DNA from: Candidatus Magasanikbacteria bacterium RIFCSPHIGHO2_01_FULL_33_34
Lineage (GTDB): Bacteria; Patescibacteriota; Patescibacteriia; Magasanikbacterales; UBA922
Assembly: GCA_001782825.1 (NCBI GenBank)
Contig: MFPS01000007.1
Coordinates: forward strand, 84,487 to 148,486
Direction: 5' to 3'
DNA: 64,000 nt
Under the pieces are notes generated by a model that did not search any database, was not told the origin of the DNA, and saw nothing but the letters and a program-made list of their open reading frames with translations. Each line of letters opens with the position of its first letter. Position 1 is the first letter of the stretch. The position numbers were made by a program, and so were the translations under genes. Positions 11,465-63,925 of the stretch are shown piece after piece.

Positions 11465-11640
11465 AATTAGTGTGAATTAATTTATAAATATAAAATAGAA
11501 TTAATAATTAGAGATTATTATGAGCGGATTTGATGCCACAAAAGACATCACCCTCGGAGCCACAGCGAGAATGAGCGAATGATAATCTCTAATTATTAAT
11601 TATTCTATTAAATAATAATTTTTAAATTAATTCACACTAC
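11465..11640. promoter_or_regulatory. Nested-hairpin intergenic element A, carrying the conserved core GGATTTGAT-N15-CATCACCCTCGGAGCC-ANNGCGAGAATGAG. Candidate cis-regulatory leader or structured RNA.
   Basis: Outer stem 11469-11484 pairs with 11622-11637 (16 bp). Inner stem 11498-11520 pairs with 11580-11605. The loop 11521-11580 matches the loops of elements B (20821-20932) and C (42488-42562). Abuts the start codon of the GT4 gene at 11464. Confidence 0.45.
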
Positions 11641-13196: not shown

Positions 13197-13200
13197 AATA

Positions 13201-13230
13201 AAAAATAGTCTAATTAATTAGACTATTTTT
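13201..13230. terminator. Bidirectional intrinsic terminator (perfect 30-bp palindrome) between convergent genes
   Basis: AAAAATAGTCTAATTAATTAGACTATTTTT with flanking A and T runs. Confidence 0.5.
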
Positions 13231-13234
13231 TATT

Positions 13235-19664: not shown

Positions 19665-20789
19665 TTATTTTAATATAAAATTTACTATCTCCTTAGCCCT
19701 ACTTTCCCAATCATATTTTTTAACATCCAAATTAGCTTGCTTTACCAAACTATCAGACAAATCTTCTTGTGTCAAAACTTTTTTTATGCCATTAGCTAAC
19801 TCCACAACATTACCCGCTTCTACCAATACAGCATTATCTTCAGACAATACTTCCCTTATAGATGGCAAATCTGATGCCACAATTGGCGTGCCAGAAGCCA
19901 TATATTCAAACATTTTCATTGGAGATGTATAATGCGAAGATATTTTTTCTTCTCCACAATTTGGCAAAATTAAAACATCAACTGCATTCATCCAGTCTGG
20001 CATCTCATCGTGACTCTGCCAACCAATATACTTAAGATTTTTAAAATTATATTTTTCCTTAAATCTTTTCAAATCCACATCAGTACCACCTACAATATAA
20101 AAATCAAGCTCTGGTAACTCTTTGGCAGTCTCCGCAAATATATGCGCACCCTTCCATTTATAAAGATGTCCGGTATACAAAGCAATCTTTTTATCTTTTG
20201 GTATATGCAATTTTTTTCTTGAACTATCTTTTGTTCTATTGATATTAAATTTTTCAATGTCAACCGCATCACGAGCAATAATTATTTTATTTGCATCTAC
20301 ACCAAACTTGACCAAATCATCTTTTATATTTTGGCTAATAACAATTATACCTTTTACTCTTGACCATGTCTTTATATATTTTGATGATGGTTGCTGAGGT
20401 AGACTATGCACTTCATAATAAACGCTATTATAGACCTTTGATAATTCCAATGCTATATATAAATCACGCGTATAAAAAATATCAATATTCTCTTTTTTAA
20501 TATAAGCTCTGACTGCATAATAAAAAGTCAAAGTTTCAATCCAAAAAAATATCTTTTTAAAAAATGGTAAATTAACCAAATCCAAACACCATACTTTAAT
20601 AATAGAAAAATTTTCTTTTATACTATAAAATTTAAAAGGATTTTCTTTATGATTATTTTTCCTTGTCGGAACAACTAATACAACTTTCAAATCAGATGAA
20701 ACCAAAGATTCACATGTCTTCACAATCTGGATTCCATGTGCTTTTTCAGTTGGTAAACGAATATTTGCAATATAAGCTAACGATTTCAT
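19665..20789 (-). CDS. GT4 (GT-B) glycosyltransferase
   Basis: 374 aa; C-terminal EYMASGTPIVASDLPSIREV nucleotide-binding region. Confidence 0.6.
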   Translation of the reverse strand: MKSLAYIANIRLPTEKAHGIQIVKTCESLVSSDLKVVLVVPTRKNNHKENPFKFYSIKENFSIIKVWCLDLVNLPFFKKIFFWIETLTFYYAVRAYIKKENIDIFYTRDLYIALELSKVYNSVYYEVHSLPQQPSSKYIKTWSRVKGIIVISQNIKDDLVKFGVDANKIIIARDAVDIEKFNINRTKDSSRKKLHIPKDKKIALYTGHLYKWKGAHIFAETAKELPELDFYIVGGTDVDLKRFKEKYNFKNLKYIGWQSHDEMPDWMNAVDVLILPNCGEEKISSHYTSPMKMFEYMASGTPIVASDLPSIREVLSEDNAVLVEAGNVVELANGIKKVLTQEDLSDSLVKQANLDVKKYDWESRAKEIVNFILK

Positions 20790-20820
20790 ATTTATATGTA
20801 ATAAGAATTGAGGACATTAT

Positions 20821-20932
20821 TTATAATTAAGCATTAGTTTGTTTATTTATTTTTACGGATTTGATACCCATAACAGGCATCACCCTCGGAGCCAAGGCGA
20901 GAATGAGTAAAAACAAATAAACAAACTAATGC
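20821..20932. promoter_or_regulatory. Hairpin-embedded intergenic element B, same conserved core as element A
   Basis: Stem GCATTAGTTTGTTTATTTATTTTTAC (20821-20846) pairs with GTAAAAACAAATAAACAAACTAATGC (20907-20932). Loop reads ...GGATTTGATACCCATAACAGGCATCACCCTCGGAGCCAAGGCGAGAATGAG. It lies 32 nt upstream of the GT4 start at 20789. Confidence 0.45.
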
Positions 20933-20977
20933 GATCGTAGATGAAATATAAACAATGCTATTATATCTTACAACTTA

Positions 20978-22333
20978 TTATATAAACAAACCCAATTTTT
21001 CCTTTAATTTGTCCATGCTTAATAGTAAATCAATTATAGCATTTAAACTTATTATTCCAAAAGCCATAATAAAAGCTTTTTCTTTGATATTTTTCTTATT
21101 TTGCCACAACAATACCGCTCCATATCCAGCTAATAATGAAAGCAATGGATATATTTGAAATCTATATCTAGTTTCAACCACAGTAATAAATAATATCAGT
21201 GGAGTTAAAAAAATAAACGCAAAAATATAATTTAACGTATTTGATCTTTGCGACCACAATTTAATAGAGGCATACAAAGACAAGACAAATAACAAAAGTG
21301 ACCAAACAGCCGAAGACATCAAAAATAAAAATTGACTAATACCTGAATCATAAAACCAAAAACCCATCGGTCGTATAACACTAAAATATCTATTTATCCT
21401 AAGTGCGGTCAGACGAATAAAATCCAATGGATAATTACGAACAAAAATTTTAAATTCATCGATAGACTTATCAGATACCAAATATGCGCCATATTCTACT
21501 ATAAAATCCTCTACCTCCTCTGGCTTGTCTTGTTCACCAGTTGCACCAACATGATTGCCTATCCAAAAATTATAACCACCAGCTGCGCCAAAAGGCATTA
21601 TTTTTTCATAAGCCATATAATTACGGACTGTCCACGGTGTAAATATAGCACCGATAGCCACAGACATTATAATTATTTGTTTGTATTTTTTCTTGAATAC
21701 AAAATACAAAAATATAACAGGCAACACAAAAAGTACCGGTGGTCTCGCCAAAACAGCCAAGCCACTAATTATCCCTAAAGATATAGCATTAATCCAAGAT
21801 TTTGATCCAGAAATTTTCTCTTTATCAATAAAGTTTAAAAAATACCAAATAAGCCATGTCCAAAAAAATATATATAATGTCTCTGTCATAAGCATAGCAG
21901 AAATCTCTACTAAATCTGGAGAAAAACCAAATATAATAGTAGAGCCCAAAGCCATCAATTCAACTTTTTCGTATTTTTTAAATAAAATTTTAGCAGATAA
22001 ATAAACAAAATAAGCGGACACAGTATGTAACAAAGCCTGAATTATCCAAACTACTTCATAATTGTGCCCAAATACCAAATAAATAAATGCCAAAAAATAT
22101 TGGTATAATGGACCGACTCTGGTTATGGCTTTATCAAACTTAACATCTGCGCCAGCATCTTCTACAAAACCATTACCAGAAATTATATTTTGAGCAATAT
22201 GATCATAGGCTCTAGCGTCAACCACTGGATGAATTCTAAAAACAAAAGAATAGGCAATACACAAAAAAAGAGACCCTAACAAAATATATAATAAAGGTTT
22301 CTTTTTGAGATTATTTTTAACCTCCTCAAACAT
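20978..22333 (-). CDS. GT-C fold membrane glycosyltransferase (ArnT/PMT-like)
   Basis: 451 aa polytopic membrane protein immediately downstream of a Dpm1-like GT2 (9-nt gap). Confidence 0.5.
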   Translation of the reverse strand: MFEEVKNNLKKKPLLYILLGSLFLCIAYSFVFRIHPVVDARAYDHIAQNIISGNGFVEDAGADVKFDKAITRVGPLYQYFLAFIYLVFGHNYEVVWIIQALLHTVSAYFVYLSAKILFKKYEKVELMALGSTIIFGFSPDLVEISAMLMTETLYIFFWTWLIWYFLNFIDKEKISGSKSWINAISLGIISGLAVLARPPVLFVLPVIFLYFVFKKKYKQIIIMSVAIGAIFTPWTVRNYMAYEKIMPFGAAGGYNFWIGNHVGATGEQDKPEEVEDFIVEYGAYLVSDKSIDEFKIFVRNYPLDFIRLTALRINRYFSVIRPMGFWFYDSGISQFLFLMSSAVWSLLLFVLSLYASIKLWSQRSNTLNYIFAFIFLTPLILFITVVETRYRFQIYPLLSLLAGYGAVLLWQNKKNIKEKAFIMAFGIISLNAIIDLLLSMDKLKEKLGLFI

Positions 22334-23058: not shown

Positions 23059-23700
23059 TTATTTCTTTTCAACTATTAAGGCCATTTGCTTAGCACCAGG
23101 CCTTATCGGTGAATTTAGATAAGCTCTAATTACTAACCTAGGTGTAGGTATAGAACTACTCTTAAATGAATAAGGAGTAATTTTTGGTAAGACTTTTATC
23201 AAATCAAAATTATTCTCTTTAAGTAAAGTAGAAAGACCCTCATGGGTAAATATTGTCCTATGAGTATAATCATCAAAATACTCACGCCAACAATACCTAA
23301 AGTTTGGTTGTAAAATACACAATCTTCCACCCTTTTTCAACACTCGGTTAATTTGTAAAATTATTTTTTCAACATCTTCAATTATAAAATGTTCAAAAAA
23401 ATTACTTGCTAAAAACATATCTACTGAATTATCTTCAAAAGAAGATAATTCAGTCGCATCTTGGACTAAAGCTTCTGTGCCATTTTTAGCATAATCTCTA
23501 ACAATTGGAGAAATATCTATTGCTACCTTTTTATTTGCTTTTACATTATTTATCCAACAACAATAACCAGCGCCTAATTCTACAACTTTATCTAATTGTT
23601 TTGGATAATAAGCAGAAAAAAAACGATTCAACTCTTCCCAAACAATATCTCTTCTGCCATCAGCTGTTAATCTTTCTTCAAAATATTTTTCTGTGTACAT
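23059..23700 (-). CDS. Class I SAM-dependent methyltransferase
   Basis: VVELGAGYCCW (motif I), LKKGGRLCIL (motif II-like). 213 aa; overlaps the upstream GT-C gene by 34 nt. Confidence 0.5.
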   Translation of the reverse strand: MYTEKYFEERLTADGRRDIVWEELNRFFSAYYPKQLDKVVELGAGYCCWINNVKANKKVAIDISPIVRDYAKNGTEALVQDATELSSFEDNSVDMFLASNFFEHFIIEDVEKIILQINRVLKKGGRLCILQPNFRYCWREYFDDYTHRTIFTHEGLSTLLKENNFDLIKVLPKITPYSFKSSSIPTPRLVIRAYLNSPIRPGAKQMALIVEKK

Positions 23701-42432: not shown

Positions 42433-42487
42433 ATTTAAATTATTAGAATCATCAGTATTATTTATAATTAAGTATTATTTCCAATTA

Positions 42488-42562
42488 TTTATTTTTACGG
42501 ATTTGTTTGTACCAACAGACAAACACCTCGGAGCCCGTAGGCAATGTGTAAATTGAAATCCA
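42488..42562. promoter_or_regulatory. Intergenic element C, a degenerate copy of the A/B core (TTTATTTTTACGGATTTGTT...ACACCTCGGAGCC)
   Basis: Shares TATTTATTTTTACGGATTTG with element B and CCTCGGAGCC with A and B; lies 56 nt upstream of the uxs start codon. Confidence 0.35.
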
Positions 42563-52759: not shown

Positions 52760-55700
52760 TTAGAGAGCAACTACAGTAGGTGTGGTTGAAGCTGAGCCTA
52801 AACCAGAAATCAAGAATCCATTTGTCCAGTCATTTGTAGTCGTAGCATGTGCGCTAAGATGTCTATCTGACCAGATAAAGTCATCATGTGTTTCACCGTC
52901 AACATTAGTTGCTTTTTCCATCAACAATGCAGGTGTACCACCTTCAGCAACAGAAGCGTCGCCACCCAATCTAGTGGAAACTGAAGCGCCTGATGCAGCA
53001 CCAGTTACAGTACCACGAAGAACATAAGTTCTAGGTGTACCTAGAGCAACTGTTCTAGCTTCACCACCTTGACCTGTACCACTTGAATCTGTATCAAATA
53101 GAGCTTCAAAGTATCCATTTGCATAAGCTGTTGTTGCAGAACTATACAATGACACTTCTGTCTCATCTGTTACATCTAATACTTCAACATTAGTTACAGT
53201 TGCAGTTGTAGTTGTCATATCAAATACAAATTTGTATAGATCAATATCGCTAGTATTAGCGGTTACTTTGAATTTATACAAATCAACTGAACCGTTAGAC
53301 AATGTTCCACCGACTGTAAGTTTTGTTACAGTTGGAACACCTCTATACATGTAGTTAGTATTTCCAGTTGGAGCAGTTGTACCAAGATACTCTACCGCAC
53401 CGCTTCCAGTTTGAGCACCTTTAGCAGTCATATCTCCAGCAGCAGTAATCTTGAAACCAAGTCTATGTCCGCCAACTGTTACATTTTGTGATGAACCAAT
53501 ATTACTCAAATTAGCTTTCAAGTACATTTTTTGTCCATCAACATCATCTTTGTTAACTACAAAGGCACCTGAGCTGAATTCTATTACTGGAGTAGTTGAA
53601 GTTGGAACAACTGAACCAACGACTACACCAGCTTCATTTTCAAGATACAACAAGTTGTAATCTAGGTAAGATGAAGATGCAGTGGCTGTAACGACTTGAG
53701 TGAATTTAACTCTCTCCATTTCTACATTTTCTGTAGTAGTAGCCAAGAAGTTAAATACAGCAAGAGTTGCGCCTTGAGTACCAGCAGCAAATAATTTTGC
53801 AGTTGGGTTTGAACTGTCAAGAGATGCTTGAACAACACCACCAGCAGTTCCCACTGTCATTGAATTTCCAGAAGCAGTATCAATTGATTCAGTTACAGTG
53901 TTGTTTGTACTAACACCAATAGCTGTTACAAAGTTTGATGTACTTACAGCCATATTGTGAGTTCCAGCTGTAGCGCCACCTGAGATGTCACCACGAACTT
54001 CTACTACCAATGATTTGCCTTTAGCAACTGTAAATTGGTCAGCACTGGAAAGATTGAAGGTATAATCTTCAGATCCACCGGTTGTACCTGTACCAGCGTT
54101 TACAACTGATAATTGTTCAAGTGTACCACTACTATTGAATGAATCACCATCTTTGTCTACCCATAGAGTAACATTTTGAATGTGATTAGTTGCAACATTA
54201 GCTGCATGTCTAACTTTGAACTGAGTAACTTTCAACGCTTCAGAAGATCCGGTAGCATCTAATTGTACTTTAGCAAAGGTTATACCACTTGTTCCAGGAG
54301 CAAATGTTTGTGCTGCAGGAGTAGATAATGTGGTTATACGCAATGCTGCTGTAGTAATAGTTCTTGCATTAGCTGCCACAGTACCTGAACCTGGATATAC
54401 TTCCTGTGTACTACCAGAAAGTTCATAGTCATCCCCACTATCAACACCTTTAGCAACAAAATTGTCAGCTTTTTGGTCAATAGCTACAGTAATAATATCA
54501 CCATTTGCTGGTGTTGAATCAATATTACCTTTCAAAGTAAGAATATTGTCTCCGACTGGAAGAGTCATTGTGTCAGTTGAAGTAGCATATCCTGGACTGG
54601 CAGCGCCAACTCCATCTACTCCACTTATCAATGCTTTGCCAGCTGAATCATACAATGTCAAAGCATCAAAAGCGGTTGGTACTGCTGTACCGGTACCGGT
54701 AACAGTAAGCTTGAACACTATAGTTGAAACATCAACTGCTTCACCAGTAACTCTGAAATTCCATGAACCAAGTTCTACACCATTGGCCGCTTCTGGCACA
54801 TTACCAGCTGGGACATTGTTTACTTTTGTAATATTCAATGTTCCAGGACCAACCTGAACAATGTTTGACATATCTGAAGCACTGTTTGTAGGCAATCTGT
54901 AAACATTGGTATTTAGTTCTCTAACAAGAACATGTGATGCTCTTTTAACATCCAAGTCCATGTTACGGGTTGTACCGTTAAGTACATCACCATAAACTCC
55001 ATACTGTTTGTTATTACCTTTTACTATTTTACAATCATCACCACAGCTTGTCAGATCAAAGCTAACGTATTTTCCATCCCATACACCATCAGCAATTTTA
55101 TTGCTATTGTATGTAAGGTGAATATTAGCAAAATCAGAAGCTGAAGCTGTACCTCTGTTATAAAGAGTAATTCTCTCTACTCTTCCATCTTGAGTAGCAG
55201 TAGAGATTTGTAAGTTAGCAAGATTTACTCCTGTTTCACCGACTCTCTTTGTTACTGTTCCAACTGAAGCGCCCTGAGTTACAGTGGAAGTTCCCAAAGT
55301 AATACTAGCATTCAAGCTAACTGGATTTCCATGTAATGGAAGAGAACCGACTACTGTTGAGGCTGTCTCAACTGAGTAAACCGCCAATGTTGGCACGTTA
55401 CCACCTGTTACAGTACCCATATCGCCAACAAGAGTATATGTTTTTGTTACTCCTGATGGGATTGTTAGATCTTCAGAAAAAGATACTAAGTGATCAGAGT
55501 TAAGTGTTTTACCAGCTTCATTCAATAAATTTCCATCTGGTTTAACAACATTAATTGTACTAAAATCACCATCAACTCCTACTCCACCACGAAGCACTTT
55601 CAATGTTTTGATTACTACATCACCGCCTGTGGCTGTGAAGTTAACCTTTGTGAAAGCTAAACGTGATTGATTGGAATAACCATAAGTTCCAGATGGAGTG

Positions 55701-56515
55701 TCAGAAGCCAAAGCTACTGTCAAAGTTCCAACTGTTCCAGTACCTGTTCCTGTTCCTGTTCCAGTACCAGTTCCTGTTCCAACTCCGCCTGCTCCTTGTG
55801 TAGGATCAGCGTAAAGACTAGCAGATGTTACACTACCAGAACCTTCAGATACAGAATCTAATACAGCTTGTGATACAACTTGTACGTCAGCCATATTGCG
55901 AACAGAACCGTCAACCATATAACGCATACCATCCATTACCTTATAAGTAGTACCGCCAGCAACTTTTACTAGCATACCATTATGAGGTACGGCTTCTGTA
56001 AGCTCAGCACCAGAAGTTGAGTAGTTTGGCCAGAAAACATCAGCGATGTCTACTACCTTACTAGCCCAGTTACTTCCATATAGAGCTGAAGCTACAGCTT
56101 CGCTACCAACTTTGGCAAGAACATTGCCAGGTTGAACAGCGTATACACTTGGTGAGATTTGAACCTTAACTAACATTGAGCCAGGTCTGTAGTTAACACC
56201 AAATGGGGCACTTGATGGTGCAGGGTATGCATCCACACAAGTGGTTGGGATTTCAACAACCCCAGAAAAATCACTGAACCATGTTTTGTACACAGTTGAG
56301 TGTGGGAAATACAAACGTTCCATGTTGCCATTTAGCAAGTACACTGCACTATTACCAGGCACCTTGAAAAGGTCTCCAGCTTCTAGTGTAGGACAAGCTG
56401 CTTGTGCATTTGCAACCACTGGTACAAGAGCAGCAACGCCCATGCTCCAAAGGATTGTAAGCACAACTACTGACCATGTAAATGTTTTCTTTCCTAATCT
56501 TATTACATTCGTCAT
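52760..56515 (-). CDS. Giant secreted cell-surface protein (1251 aa), Thr/Gly/Val/Ser-rich, with a (GT)n run and N-terminal ~45-aa repeats; putative S-layer or adhesin-like glycoprotein
   Basis: Signal peptide MTNVIRLGKKTFTWSVVVLTILWSMGVAALVPVVANAQA; GVGTGTGTGTGTGTGTGTVG; about 18% Thr; three N-terminal repeats of the type also found in the 44477 protein. Confidence 0.55.
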   Translation of the reverse strand: MTNVIRLGKKTFTWSVVVLTILWSMGVAALVPVVANAQAACPTLEAGDLFKVPGNSAVYLLNGNMERLYFPHSTVYKTWFSDFSGVVEIPTTCVDAYPAPSSAPFGVNYRPGSMLVKVQISPSVYAVQPGNVLAKVGSEAVASALYGSNWASKVVDIADVFWPNYSTSGAELTEAVPHNGMLVKVAGGTTYKVMDGMRYMVDGSVRNMADVQVVSQAVLDSVSEGSGSVTSASLYADPTQGAGGVGTGTGTGTGTGTGTGTVGTLTVALASDTPSGTYGYSNQSRLAFTKVNFTATGGDVVIKTLKVLRGGVGVDGDFSTINVVKPDGNLLNEAGKTLNSDHLVSFSEDLTIPSGVTKTYTLVGDMGTVTGGNVPTLAVYSVETASTVVGSLPLHGNPVSLNASITLGTSTVTQGASVGTVTKRVGETGVNLANLQISTATQDGRVERITLYNRGTASASDFANIHLTYNSNKIADGVWDGKYVSFDLTSCGDDCKIVKGNNKQYGVYGDVLNGTTRNMDLDVKRASHVLVRELNTNVYRLPTNSASDMSNIVQVGPGTLNITKVNNVPAGNVPEAANGVELGSWNFRVTGEAVDVSTIVFKLTVTGTGTAVPTAFDALTLYDSAGKALISGVDGVGAASPGYATSTDTMTLPVGDNILTLKGNIDSTPANGDIITVAIDQKADNFVAKGVDSGDDYELSGSTQEVYPGSGTVAANARTITTAALRITTLSTPAAQTFAPGTSGITFAKVQLDATGSSEALKVTQFKVRHAANVATNHIQNVTLWVDKDGDSFNSSGTLEQLSVVNAGTGTTGGSEDYTFNLSSADQFTVAKGKSLVVEVRGDISGGATAGTHNMAVSTSNFVTAIGVSTNNTVTESIDTASGNSMTVGTAGGVVQASLDSSNPTAKLFAAGTQGATLAVFNFLATTTENVEMERVKFTQVVTATASSSYLDYNLLYLENEAGVVVGSVVPTSTTPVIEFSSGAFVVNKDDVDGQKMYLKANLSNIGSSQNVTVGGHRLGFKITAAGDMTAKGAQTGSGAVEYLGTTAPTGNTNYMYRGVPTVTKLTVGGTLSNGSVDLYKFKVTANTSDIDLYKFVFDMTTTTATVTNVEVLDVTDETEVSLYSSATTAYANGYFEALFDTDSSGTGQGGEARTVALGTPRTYVLRGTVTGAASGASVSTRLGGDASVAEGGTPALLMEKATNVDGETHDDFIWSDRHLSAHATTTNDWTNGFLISGLGSASTTPTVVAL

Positions 56516-56809: not shown

Positions 56810-58195
56810 TTATTCAACTATTTTTACTGCTTCTGTACTACTGACTTTTACTGTTTCAATATTATTAATCTTGCTCGCATCAATCGCTTCTTGGACTACT
56901 AGATCTTTGGCATCTTGTACAACCACTTTTTCAACTATATTAACGGCAATGGATGCCTCATCTACTACAACTTTTGTTTCCGTCTTTATCGTATCAAGTT
57001 CAATTATTTTCTGTAATGCTGCGGTAAAATTATCCTGTTCAATCAATATCTTTACATCAGCTTTAGTTGTCTCGGCTATTTTATTTGCTTCACCAATCTT
57101 TTGTTCTGCTACCACGACTTTTTGTTCAGCATCAACTACTTTTTTCTCGGTCTCCACAGCTTTAATCACTATGTCTTGAGTACTACTGGTTGTAGACTGT
57201 TTACTATTCATTTCAGTACTACTAGCTGTCTCACCAACTGCACCTTCTATACCAATAATATTTTTTGTGGTTGTAGTTGTCTTTATAATAGCAATGGTAC
57301 TACTAGCCTTCTCACTGGTTTCAACTACTGTTACATCTAGTTTTAATACTCCTTCTGTCAATTTGTCCAATCTGCGATTGATCGTATCAGTTACTTCTTT
57401 TTTTGTGATAACACTTTCTTTGACGTCCTCTTTGTTAACATTCTCTACTAGAACACCGACTGCTTTGATACCAGCATTTTGTATCAAAGCTTCTACTTCA
57501 ACCACATCTTTTTTAAGTTGTACTTTGGTTACCTCTGGAGCTATATCCTTAAGCTCAATAGTTCTTTCTTTTTCTTTTGGCTCTGTCAATGAATCTAATA
57601 TCTCACTTGTCTTTTTCTCAACTACTTTGGCAACCGCTACAACTTTCTCCGGAGACTTACCATTAACCTTGTCCATACTATCCTGAGTTGATTCAATTTT
57701 TTCCTTCAAAGATTTGATGGCTACAGTTGCTTGTTCGGTTGATTCTGATCTTTGATATTCATCAACTCTTGAAGAAGCGTGCTTCAATATAGTAGTTACT
57801 TCATCTTCATCTGATCCAATCACAGATGCCACCAAAAGTTCTGTTGATTCGGCTGCCATCTTGACTCCATACAATGCCTCGCCTGGCAAACTATCATATG
57901 ACGCGCTTACACTAGCAATCCAACCACTCACAGCTACCGCTCCTACCAATAATATAGTGAGACTTGATCTGGCCATTGATAATACTCTACCAGAAACAAA
58001 TACATGCAAACCTTCACTAATAGTATCAAACACACTTGTCTTTACCATCTCTTCATTCACTTCAGTATTTGTTATATTACATTTGATATCTTCAATCAGC
58101 TTGACACGAGTTTGCGCAACCCAAGAGCGGTCTGGATTTAACCGACCGTTTTCATTTTTTATATTCTTGAGTTGTTTTACAAGCTTTCGGCTCAT
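56810..58195 (-). CDS. Single-pass membrane protein, putative anti-sigma factor partner of the upstream ECF sigma
   Basis: Start codon 10 nt after the sigma stop. About 75-aa cytoplasmic N-terminus, TM helix LTILLVGAVAVSGWIASVSA, then a long E/K/V/T-rich extracytoplasmic region. Confidence 0.4.
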   Translation of the reverse strand: MSRKLVKQLKNIKNENGRLNPDRSWVAQTRVKLIEDIKCNITNTEVNEEMVKTSVFDTISEGLHVFVSGRVLSMARSSLTILLVGAVAVSGWIASVSASYDSLPGEALYGVKMAAESTELLVASVIGSDEDEVTTILKHASSRVDEYQRSESTEQATVAIKSLKEKIESTQDSMDKVNGKSPEKVVAVAKVVEKKTSEILDSLTEPKEKERTIELKDIAPEVTKVQLKKDVVEVEALIQNAGIKAVGVLVENVNKEDVKESVITKKEVTDTINRRLDKLTEGVLKLDVTVVETSEKASSTIAIIKTTTTTKNIIGIEGAVGETASSTEMNSKQSTTSSTQDIVIKAVETEKKVVDAEQKVVVAEQKIGEANKIAETTKADVKILIEQDNFTAALQKIIELDTIKTETKVVVDEASIAVNIVEKVVVQDAKDLVVQEAIDASKINNIETVKVSSTEAVKIVE

Positions 58196-58204
58196 AATAT
58201 AATA

Positions 58205-58768
58205 TTATTTTTTCTTTGGGCTTTTAGGCTCAACAAATTCTTTTAATTTTTTGGTAGCGCGATAGATTATTATTCGTACATTTGTTGCGCTGATATCCAA
58301 TATGCCTGCAATATCTTTGGTTGACAAACCTTCTATATATCTCAAATGTATTACTTCCTGATACTCATGTTTTAATTTTTTTATAGATTTTATCAAATCT
58401 TGCTGTTCTTCTTTTACTTCAATATCTATTCGCAAATCATTACCAACCAATGTCTCAGTCGCCACATCAATCAAACACTCATTCTTTCTGGCGCGCTCAC
58501 GATACACATCAATTATTCTATTTCTAGCAATTCTATAAACCAATTGTCTAAAACTGGTAATATCTCTCGGTTTCTCAATCAAATAATCCCAAGTTTTTAA
58601 AAAGACTTCAGAAGATATATCTTCAGCATCCTCACGATTGGATAATTTAAAAAAAACAAACCTATAAATCGGTTGAATATAAAAATCATACAATTTAGCA
58701 AATGCTTCTGTATCTCTCTTGCTGATCACTTTGTAAACTAATAATTTCTCTTCTATATGAGTCTTCAT
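58205..58768 (-). CDS. ECF-type sigma-70 family RNA polymerase sigma factor
   Basis: Region 2 (FAKLYDFYIQPIYRFVFFKLSNREDAEDISSEVFLKTWDYL) and region 4 HTH (LSTKDIAGILDISATNVRIIIYRATKKLKE). The track start at 58870 overlaps a palindromic array; Met35 chosen. Confidence 0.75.
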   Translation of the reverse strand: MKTHIEEKLLVYKVISKRDTEAFAKLYDFYIQPIYRFVFFKLSNREDAEDISSEVFLKTWDYLIEKPRDITSFRQLVYRIARNRIIDVYRERARKNECLIDVATETLVGNDLRIDIEVKEEQQDLIKSIKKLKHEYQEVIHLRYIEGLSTKDIAGILDISATNVRIIIYRATKKLKEFVEPKSPKKK

Positions 58769-58794
58769 ATATATAGACGGGAAAATGGTTAAAA

Positions 58795-58925
58795 TGTTAC
58801 ACTCTATGGCATTTAAACATGTAAGCATATAAACATTTAAACATATGGTGATTTCATCAATATGTTTCAACCCACATGTTTAAATGTTTGTATGTTTTAA
58901 TGTTTATATGTTTTAAATGCCAAAA
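58795..58925. repeat. TAAACAT-unit inverted-repeat array Z, immediately upstream of the ECF sigma gene
   Basis: GGCATTTAAACATGTAAGCATATAAACATTTAAACATATGG ... CATGTTTAAATGTTTGTATGTTTTAATGTTTATATGTTTTAAATGCC. Confidence 0.5.
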
Positions 58926-59307: not shown

Positions 59308-59353
59308 TTTATTAATATTTTGTATAGACTAGTCTATACAAAATATTAATAAA
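59308..59353. promoter_or_regulatory. Perfect 46-bp palindrome (TTATTAATATTTTGTATAGACT|AGTCTATACAAAATATTAATAA), candidate operator upstream of the HTH gene
   Basis: Verified base by base. The related half-site palindrome ATTTGTATAGACTATTGTATACAAAT lies at 59244-59269. Confidence 0.6.
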
Positions 59354-62800: not shown

Positions 62801-63925
62801 TTAATCTTGAACAGTAATTTTGGGTGGTGTTTCACTCAAATCGACGTCTATCAAATGCTCTTTACCGTTACTATCAACGGCAACAACCACTCCATTGTCC
62901 CCCTGCAAAAAAGTATATTCTTTATCAAAAATTATATAATCCTTGCCATTGCTGGATATCTTCATAACATTAGAACCACCTTTTACTACATCAATTTCAT
63001 TCTCATTTGCCTGTTCAGTATTGAATAATAATTCTGCTTCATCTTTATAATCATCGGTAATATGGTTAAGCATATTCATTCTTACTGCTTCGGCAATTTG
63101 TTCAGATGATGCTTTTGCATCTGTTTTTAGCAGATCAATTAATTCTTGATTTGAGGAATCAAGTGTAGAACTACTTCCCAAATCCTGTACTATCAAACTT
63201 CCAAAACTGGCTGAATCTTTAACATCATGCCCTTCAATGCTATGATAATTAACTCTATTCTTTAAATAATTCAAATATTTATTGAACTCTTGATCATATA
63301 CTTCTCTATATTTATTTTGTATTTCTGGATCAACTACAGACACTTCTGTATTAGATTCAATTTTTTCTGTTTCTGGTGATGTCTCAGCATCTTCAGCCTC
63401 AACTTGAGTATTCTGTACCGGAACTACTTCTTCACTAGGATATGAAACATTTTCTTCGCTTTCAACTTTCAATTTATCTACATCATCTGCGATCGGTTTT
63501 TCTACTGCTAGGTTATTTTCTGGTTTTACAAAATGATCAGCTCCAGAAATAGCGTCTACTTTGTTATCTGTAAGTGATATATCAGCCACAACCTTATTAA
63601 CATCTACTGCTTCAGTCACTCCACTTGGTTTATTTTCAACCGCATTTATCATAGCCTCAGTACTCACAAATGCAGAACCTTTTGGCAATTCACCGGTAAA
63701 TGGCACATTGATAGTTTTTTGAATAGTTTCAGTATGACCAACAATATCAAAATTTGATCGATCGCCACTCATTGCATCTATTGCAGGACCAGAAACATAT
63801 TCTGCATGAGGGCCAGCCGACAATTGCGCGTCCCCACTCATCAAAGCTTCATTGTTGCCAACTTCTCCACCTCTTGGACTCATTGCTTCCCATCTATAAC
63901 CTTCTAATTTATTGCCATCGTACAT
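62801..63925 (-). CDS. Acidic hypothetical protein (AT-rich, host-like composition)
   Basis: 374 aa, Asp/Glu/Ser-rich, no recognisable motifs. The reading frame may continue upstream toward the window end. Confidence 0.3.
   Translation of the reverse strand: MYDGNKLEGYRWEAMSPRGGEVGNNEALMSGDAQLSAGPHAEYVSGPAIDAMSGDRSNFDIVGHTETIQKTINVPFTGELPKGSAFVSTEAMINAVENKPSGVTEAVDVNKVVADISLTDNKVDAISGADHFVKPENNLAVEKPIADDVDKLKVESEENVSYPSEEVVPVQNTQVEAEDAETSPETEKIESNTEVSVVDPEIQNKYREVYDQEFNKYLNYLKNRVNYHSIEGHDVKDSASFGSLIVQDLGSSSTLDSSNQELIDLLKTDAKASSEQIAEAVRMNMLNHITDDYKDEAELLFNTEQANENEIDVVKGGSNVMKISSNGKDYIIFDKEYTFLQGDNGVVVAVDSNGKEHLIDVDLSETPPKITVQD

Follow-up and report, generated by a model that had tools for sequence, protein, structure and literature searches.

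Genomes of the candidate phyla radiation are tiny (~1 Mb) and are thought to be poor in repetitive DNA. Among the short repeats described in bacteria, REP/BIME sequences combine a short conserved head with a palindrome that is family-specific but paired; they are intergenic, abundant and biased in orientation, all of which are likenesses to the family described here. REPs are 20-40 nt long, start with GTAG, insert without duplicating their target and occur together with a RAYT gene, whereas neither a GTAG start, nor duplication-free insertion, nor a RAYT gene was seen here. Correia/NEMIS repeats of Neisseria share with the present family a non-coding unit of ~100-190 bp, terminal repeats of ~25 bp, target duplications and sites that are filled in some strains and empty in others. 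They also share insertion between co-transcribed genes and transcripts with a long hairpin, the latter being predicted here, and their hairpins are reportedly cut by RNase III, while the effects of ERIC repeats on mRNA are reported to be orientation-dependent (PMC2229807). There is, however, no sequence similarity between Correia/NEMIS and the present family, the duplication is ~8 bp here and TA there, and the present family differs in having its centre best conserved, a stem with compensatory changes between subfamilies, and a host within the candidate phyla radiation. ERIC/IRU and YPAL/RU-2 repeats of enterobacteria are imperfect palindromes of 127-168 bp found, as here, in operon intergenic spacers, and in YPAL, inverted repeats are found internally and the target duplication varies in length (PMC2229807). 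Transcripts of Correia, ERIC and YPAL repeats fold into long hairpins with effects on the processing and stability of mRNA (PMC2229807). Their sequences are nevertheless unrelated to those described below, they are without a conserved asymmetric three-way-junction core, and a strict bias to a single replication strand is not reported for them in the part of that source available (PMC2229807). A search of the full-text literature found no description of such repeats in this lineage.

The window analysed here is the whole stretch of 64,000 nucleotides, from a genome of Candidatus Magasanikbacteria within the candidate phyla radiation. It harbors, within a glycosylation gene cluster, an element referred to as B, which nearly fills the 188-bp spacer between the stop codon of a GT-C gene (20978-20980) and the start codon of a GT4 gene (20787-20789):

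20978-22333, minus strand: GT-C (PMT_2) gene upstream of B, assigned by Pfam, with an ortholog in L133 that is 43% identical over its full length

20798-20971, minus strand: whole element B, ~174 bp, delimited by full-length homology to copy F and by shared outer repeats

19665-20789, minus strand: GT4 glycosyltransferase gene downstream of B, with Pfam Glycos_transf_1 and Glyco_transf_4

This gene context agrees with the initial annotation, which had placed B between a GT-C gene and the GT4 gene starting at 20789. Every gene around B is carried by the minus strand, which is the sense strand for B. The GT4 protein can also be found in Rifle-type groundwater metagenome contigs and in GCA_001784315.1.

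The most prominent feature of B is a long stem, P0, whose two arms enclose a short core:

20907-20932, minus strand: 5' arm of P0, 26 nt, GTAAAAACAAATAAACAAACTAATGC

20831-20856, minus strand: 3' arm of P0, 26 nt, GCATTAGTTTGTTTATTTATTTTTAC, homologous to the 3' arms of C and F

A perfect 26-bp stem over 20821-20932 had been described at the outset. The 26-bp inverted repeat is indeed present at this place, but it holds 25 Watson-Crick pairs out of 26, A20849 facing C20914 as a mismatch on the plus strand and as a G.U wobble on the minus strand, and positions 20821-20830 lie outside the stem. A second G.U pair with the same polarity is found in the inner hairpin of B. Fold prediction, which the initial annotation had proposed as a check, gives -58.9 kcal/mol for the B spacer as RNA on the minus strand (z = -9.1; none of 200 shuffles as good), as opposed to -42.5 kcal/mol on the plus strand. 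With DNA folding parameters a hairpin is formed on both strands (-27.1 and -24.7). The hairpin of B is well beyond chance expectation. A search for an intrinsic terminator at B found none.

Exactly three copies of the element are found in the window by short-word BLAST and a mismatch-tolerant pattern, namely A, B and a degenerate copy, C. All three are on the minus strand, and they occupy, one each, the three widest intergenic spacers of the glycosylation cluster:

11470-11637, minus strand: element A, ~168 bp, core at 11525-11574, 77 bits, second subfamily with arms of ~55 nt; located between divergent GT4 and flippase genes

42440-42561, minus strand: element C, degenerate, of the B subfamily, core at 42498-42547, 5' arm decayed, 53.5 bits; located 5' of a gene of the NAD-dependent epimerase/dehydratase family

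The bit scores are those of a covariance model built from eight distinct sequences, which gives B 85.3 bits on the minus strand and 14.6 bits on the plus strand. Short A+T-rich perfect hairpins without the core score 13-17 bits in the window (13197-13234, 59314-59347, 23419-23456 and 21678-21712); the one at 13197-13234 sits between convergent genes and is terminator-like. No additional copy was found in a further 7.9 kb of the source genome.

The part common to the three window copies reads, on the minus strand, CATT-N7-9-GGCTCCGAGG-(17-23-nt hairpin)-CAAATCCG. In B it is G+C-richer than its surroundings and is predicted to form a three-way junction:

20857-20906, minus strand: conserved core of B, consisting of U-CAUUCUCG, P1, G, P2 and AAUCC, a three-way junction closed by P0

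20884-20897, minus strand: P1 hairpin of B, CCUUG-GCUC-CGAGG, predicted fold

20862-20882, minus strand: P2 hairpin of B, UGAUGCC-UGUUAUG-GGUAUCA, with one G.U pair; 7 of 8 pairs with compensatory double changes

That B has the same core as element A was borne out, 44 of 51 positions being identical to the core of A at 11525-11574 (86% identity). The inverted repeat around it had been called unrelated, which holds against the 26-nt arms of A (13 of 28 positions identical) but not against those of C and of copy F from locus L122, to which the arm of B is homologous.

Comparison of the copies indicates that the unit is larger than the hairpin that was first described, since it extends to outer inverted repeats:

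20947-20971, minus strand: left outer inverted repeat of B, GTAAGATATAATAGCATTGTTTATA, pairing with 20798-20825 in the fold

20798-20825, minus strand: right outer inverted repeat of B, TATAAATAATGTCCTCAATTCTTATTAC, ending 8 nt before the GT4 start codon

Over its full length B is homologous to copy F (L122:16690-16905), and its ends are imperfect inverted repeats of ~25 bp that recur at the ends of the C, F, A and D copies. The reverse complement of the left end of B (TATAAACAATGCTATTATATCTTAC) matches the right end of copy L117 (TATAAACAACGCTATTATAGCCTAC) at 22 of 25 positions. The family ends can be written as GTAAGAAT..AGCRTTGTTTATA and TATAAAYAAYGCT..ATTCTTAC in the B, F, A and D copies, and the right-end motif TATAAAYAAYG..ATTCTTAC terminates the C, F and D copies. 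These outer repeats are conserved between genomes of 32% and 45% G+C, although the left one is absent from copy b and neither is evident in the E copy. Between them, the layout is a short spacer, P0, an unpaired U, CAUUCUCG, P1, P2, AAUCC and the other arm of P0, and the copies are non-coding and 110-190 bp in size.

In five copies the right end lies 5-9 nt before the next start codon, without a Shine-Dalgarno sequence:

20798-20789, 42440-42433 and 11470-11465 of the window, and ~3980-3989 of L113 (strand not given): gaps from right end to start codon

Either insertion prefers this position or the end of the element supplies a translation-initiation region.

Inverted repeats of 26 bp around a short segment upstream of glycosyltransferase genes, together with promoter-like hexamers, are reminiscent of the invertible promoter switches (invertons) that act on surface-polysaccharide genes in Bacteroides. 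Yet the segment between the repeats is just 50 bp, and six independent assemblies of the strain show no difference in B and all have it in one orientation. The core moreover keeps a single polarity with respect both to the asymmetric outer parts and to the G-rich strand, and no recombinase was found among the window genes scanned. Sigma-70-like promoters in the outer repeats were rejected, the sites being neither above shuffled expectation nor conserved in the copies of 45% G+C. An inverton at this locus is therefore hardly credible. One apparent strain variant (L005:4705-4780) was discarded as a scaffolding artefact, as it consists of a run of N followed by unrelated sequence.

Copies in other genomes were found in two ways. 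A stricter pattern applied to metagenome contigs returned 10 loci, of which 8 were real, seven coming from organism D and one from organism E. Organism D has 45% G+C and at least five distinct element sites, while E is represented by a marine read of 32% G+C (L114) with one copy. The DnaK of D is 78-86% identical to its best homologs in other genomes, several of which are named Magasanikbacteria, and D is therefore a member of the candidate phylum of the window. The covariance model, for its part, detected three copies, F, G and H, within a 22-kb locus (L122) of a relative of 33% G+C. True copies reach 53-102 bits on their top strand, as against 14-24 bits on the opposite one. Altogether the analysis rests on 12 independent sites, comprising three in the window, three in L122, those of D and one of E. 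No copy was found in the dnaK regions (~9-22 kb each) of five other Magasanikbacteria-like genomes. The loose pattern GGCTCCGAGG-N15-25-CAAATCCG gave, among the matches listed for genome contigs, only chance matches in G+C-rich genomes, and viral contigs, scanned twice with patterns, yielded no match in one case and in the other two chance matches, which the covariance model rejected.

Copy H contains, nested at L122:14313-14333 and replacing part of the 5' junction strand, a 20-nt perfect G+C palindrome, CCTGCCTGCCGGCAGGCAGG, and a near-identical palindrome, CCCTGCCTACCGGCAGGCAGG, can be found at L128:20746-20766 in another Magasanikbacteria-like genome. The two may represent a second, tiny repeat family.

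The alignment of the 12 copies allows the core to be considered in terms of structure. Across the family P1 is CCUYG-GCUC-CGAGG, P2 has 7-8 bp with a loop of 6-8 nt, and P0 has 13-26 bp; the blocks CATTCTC, CTCCGAGG and AATCC are near-invariant in the 12 copies. In this alignment, which was fitted to the covariance model and so leans somewhat towards structure, 90% of pair cells are paired, as compared with 42-53% in controls where the partners were slid. Double compensatory changes are found across the family at 10 of the 14 modelled P0 pairs and at 7 of the 8 P2 pairs, and an alignment made with MAFFT agrees, with 15 of 28 pairs compensatory. The sequence of P0 differs between subfamilies, yet it remains paired. 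P1 is plausible but unproven, because its variation across copies consists solely of C to U exchanges (in either direction) opposite G, with no double compensatory change; in some copies a competing helix, UCUCG/CGAGG, is predicted in its place. Taken alone, the core folds no better than shuffled sequences (z = -1 to -2.5).

Core variation fits base pairing and not codons, and reading frames are inconsistent between copies; a small peptide encoded by the core was rejected, as frames and start codons vary. With Rfam 15 at gathering thresholds, neither the whole spacer nor the core alone gave a match, and relaxed thresholds gave only microRNA-precursor-like noise from the long stem and a 17-bit match on the wrong strand. 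The junction sequences are unlike the cores of hammerhead, twister or pistol ribozymes. Inspection by eye for an IHF site, CIRCE, a DnaA box, integron attC R'/R'', a tRNA-like T-arm and box C/D found none that is conserved across subfamilies. The conservation of these 50 central bases is unusually high, and they may be functional in their own right.

The initial annotation had read this core as a conserved leader motif upstream of glycosyltransferase genes. A cis-regulatory leader RNA (a riboswitch or antitermination element) dedicated to glycosyltransferase or polysaccharide genes would accord with the sense orientation of all three window copies, with their position 5-60 nt before a start codon that belongs to a sugar-pathway gene, and with the covarying hairpin held by the core. 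The neighbours of the other copies do not follow this pattern: homologs adjoin heat-shock, Fe-S cluster, nucleotide and replication genes. The D copies lie in the grpE-hsp20, hsp20-dnaK and sufD-sufS spacers and before a gene of the metallo-beta-lactamase fold, and the E copy precedes the guanylate kinase gene gmk. In L122, one copy separates hrcA from grpE, another lies between the RNase H gene and recJ, and the third is located downstream of lepA. Two copies, F and H, run antisense to the genes next to them.

Orthologous spacers without the element point in the same direction. The closest syntenic relative, L133, has the same gene order, including flanking methyltransferase and GT2 genes, with GT4 and GT-C proteins that are 65% and 43% identical to those of the window. 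Its GT-C/GT4 spacer is only 9 bp long (TAA-ATTATTTTT-ATG) and has no match to the model, as against 188 bp in the window, and the flippase/GT4 spacer, which holds element A and is 274 bp long in the window, is 102 bp there, likewise without the element. Two D strains, L126 and L125, whose DnaK is 98% identical to that of the D contig L116, differ at one element site: the hsp20-dnaK spacer is 17 bp in L126 and 166 bp in L125 and L116. Alignment of L125 with L126 reveals a 141-bp insert together with a duplicated AAATAATT, that is, an 8-bp target duplication at copy b. The neighbouring copy a is flanked on either side by the 7-bp sequence AGTAAGT. In the more distant relatives L121 and L122 the hsp20-dnaK gap is 11-38 bp. 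No target duplication was detectable around B, A, C or F, such duplications being seen only at young D copies.

Because of the unrelated neighbours, the antisense copies, the empty orthologous spacers and the presence or absence of one copy between strains with a target duplication, the element cannot be regarded as a gene-bound leader. The reading as a conserved leader of glycosyltransferase genes is contradicted on these grounds, and with no match in Rfam either, a dedicated regulatory RNA retains very little likelihood. The family of B is a dispersed insertion and not a leader belonging to a gene. Insertion takes place in A+T-rich spacers and at the ends of genes and duplicates ~8 bp of the target, and the element is tied to no gene class.

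In copy a (L116:3624-3650), the stop codon of grpE (TAG) lies inside the left terminal repeat GTTAGAAT, and the insertion has therefore remodelled the 3' end of an essential gene.

The orientation of the copies adds a constraint of another kind. In all 12 independent copies the top strand lies on the G-rich strand of the contig, where GC skew is +0.11 to +0.27. This holds even for F and H, which stand in a stretch of L122 where the genes are reversed while the sign of the skew is unchanged. Only 10 of the 12 copies are co-oriented with neighbouring genes. Very strong GC skew (0.11-0.27), with almost all genes on one strand, is a general property of the window (1-64000), of L111-L117 and of L122. 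A replication-linked and a transcription-linked constraint are both compatible with this bias, which is absolute in the present sample. The bias goes beyond what plain cut-and-paste transposition predicts, and hints at a strand-specific or replication-linked mechanism.

Such a mechanism could be that of a single-strand-DNA element of the REP/RAYT or IS200/IS605 kind, in which a Y1/HUH transposase acts on a hairpin of the lagging-strand template. Besides the location of 12 out of 12 copies on the G-rich strand, even against local gene direction, the conservation of a hairpin whose stem sequence varies, as in REP families, and the ability of the hairpin to extrude from both DNA strands would suit it. 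Young copies, however, carry direct duplications of ~7-8 bp that differ in sequence (AAATAATT and AGTAAGT). To our knowledge, IS200/IS605 and REP elements make no such target duplication. As the two duplications have different, site-specific sequences, a mechanism of the REP/IS200 type is disfavoured. In addition, a GTAG head is absent, neither tnpA nor a RAYT gene was found in ~300 kb of sequence examined, and P1 needs two G.T pairs, which are weak in DNA, so that this kind of element is quite improbable here.

Taken together, element B is probably a MITE-like non-autonomous transposable element of a new family. It is read as a transposed repeat because its features match the definition of a bacterial MITE: the copies are small (below about 300 bp), non-coding and dispersed, and have terminal inverted repeats, a target duplication and both filled and empty sites. 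The outer repeats would be recognised by a DDE-type transposase acting in trans. Scanning of the flanks at every locus examined revealed neither a transposase, a reverse transcriptase or a recombinase nor any other constant partner gene. The IS66 family makes 8-bp duplications, as is the case here. Its terminal repeats are ~24 bp long and start with GTAAGCG or GTAACCG (PMC12888890). The ends of the present elements start with GTAAGAAT or GTTAGAAT, so that the first five bases (GTAAG) alone agree; on this sequence resemblance, an IS66-like enzyme as mobiliser may be taken as a lead, and not as a claim of membership.

Once inserted, B would be co-transcribed within the GT-C/GT4 operon, and the mRNA would then carry the predicted fold, a 26-bp double-stranded RNA hairpin capped by a three-way junction. 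By analogy with what is reported for Correia and ERIC repeats, this hairpin may act as a substrate of RNase III or as a barrier to exonucleases, and it is proposed that it would therefore uncouple the two cistrons or modulate their stability. The core and the pairing of P0 may be kept by selection on the element itself.

Some features sit less easily with an ordinary MITE. Conservation is higher in the core than in the terminal repeats, whereas in MITEs the opposite is usual, and the long stem remains paired although its sequence is exchanged between subfamilies. Copy b, which has an intact duplication but is without the left outer repeat, is awkward for a two-ended DDE mechanism, and the absolute strand bias of the sample is a further such feature. 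It could accordingly be asked whether the hairpin and junction, as RNA or single-strand DNA, are the working module in place of the terminal repeats. This is judged unlikely, although it would explain why the core outlasts the ends, why stem pairing is compensatory, and why 12 of 12 copies lie on the G-rich strand. Such a module, which the element might need for its spread, could, for example, be a self-cleaving or protein-recruiting RNA, the precursor of a small RNA, or a strand-specific substrate of replication-linked transposition.

A related proposal is that the hairpin-capped core is an active functional RNA, such as a self-cleaving ribozyme, a processing signal or a protein-recognition module, or that the element has spread in a SINE-like manner via an RNA intermediate, the outer repeats being secondary. 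Core and P0 pairing are conserved across subfamilies with unrelated arms, and D-genome copies keep an identical core and stem despite very different outer parts. Retention of the target duplication by copy b in spite of its 5' truncation, the strong preference for the top strand and the co-orientation of 10 of 12 copies with genes would also suit it. On the other side, no reverse transcriptase is present in the flanks examined, neither a poly-A nor any other 3' tail is found, known ribozyme models give no match, the junction is unlike hammerhead, twister and pistol, and P1 is unproven. A reading of this sort is accordingly unlikely.

TIGR arrays, which encode the guides of RNA-guided systems with Tas/Nop-domain proteins and are common in genomes of the candidate phyla radiation, also have variable palindromic stems enclosing short motifs (PMC12045711). 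By contrast, the copies described here are solitary and dispersed, have no tas gene and possess a variable P2 that is self-complementary. Box C/D is absent from most subfamilies, with a UGAUGA-like sequence only in the stems of A, B and F. A TIGR stem-loop array was rejected, with neither a tandem array nor a Nop-domain tas gene among the genes scanned.

Returning to the reading as a MITE-like family, ~6 copies in 86 kb, inside operons as essential as those of dnaK, suf and cell-envelope glycosylation, point to active intragenomic mobile DNA in this lineage, and the repeat could be used as a marker of strain differences. With regard to annotation, hairpins of this kind should not be taken for gene-specific regulators. 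A core more conserved than the ends and the location of every copy on one strand are both unusual for a bacterial MITE; should they reflect a real function, the element could expose a new RNA module or a new mode of transposition.

Two other regions of the window deserve mention. Between 59900 and 62600 the sequence has ~60% G+C in a genome of 32% G+C, with long overlapping open reading frames on both strands. A Pfam search of this patch gave no credible family, only a 20-residue stretch of Dicty_CTDC (a Dictyostelium repeat), and neither a transposase nor a reverse transcriptase was found in it. The next gene, 62801-63925, is absent from the contig index. The region may be of foreign origin or the chimeric end of an assembly. 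The other region borders the glycosylation cluster: a gene for an ECF-type sigma factor (58205-58870) precedes one whose match to DUF5667 is weak and sub-threshold (24.2 bits, cut-off 27 bits), after which comes a gene for a 1251-residue protein without a Pfam family (52760-56515). The ECF sigma unit (window 56810-58870) may be the regulator of a surface protein.
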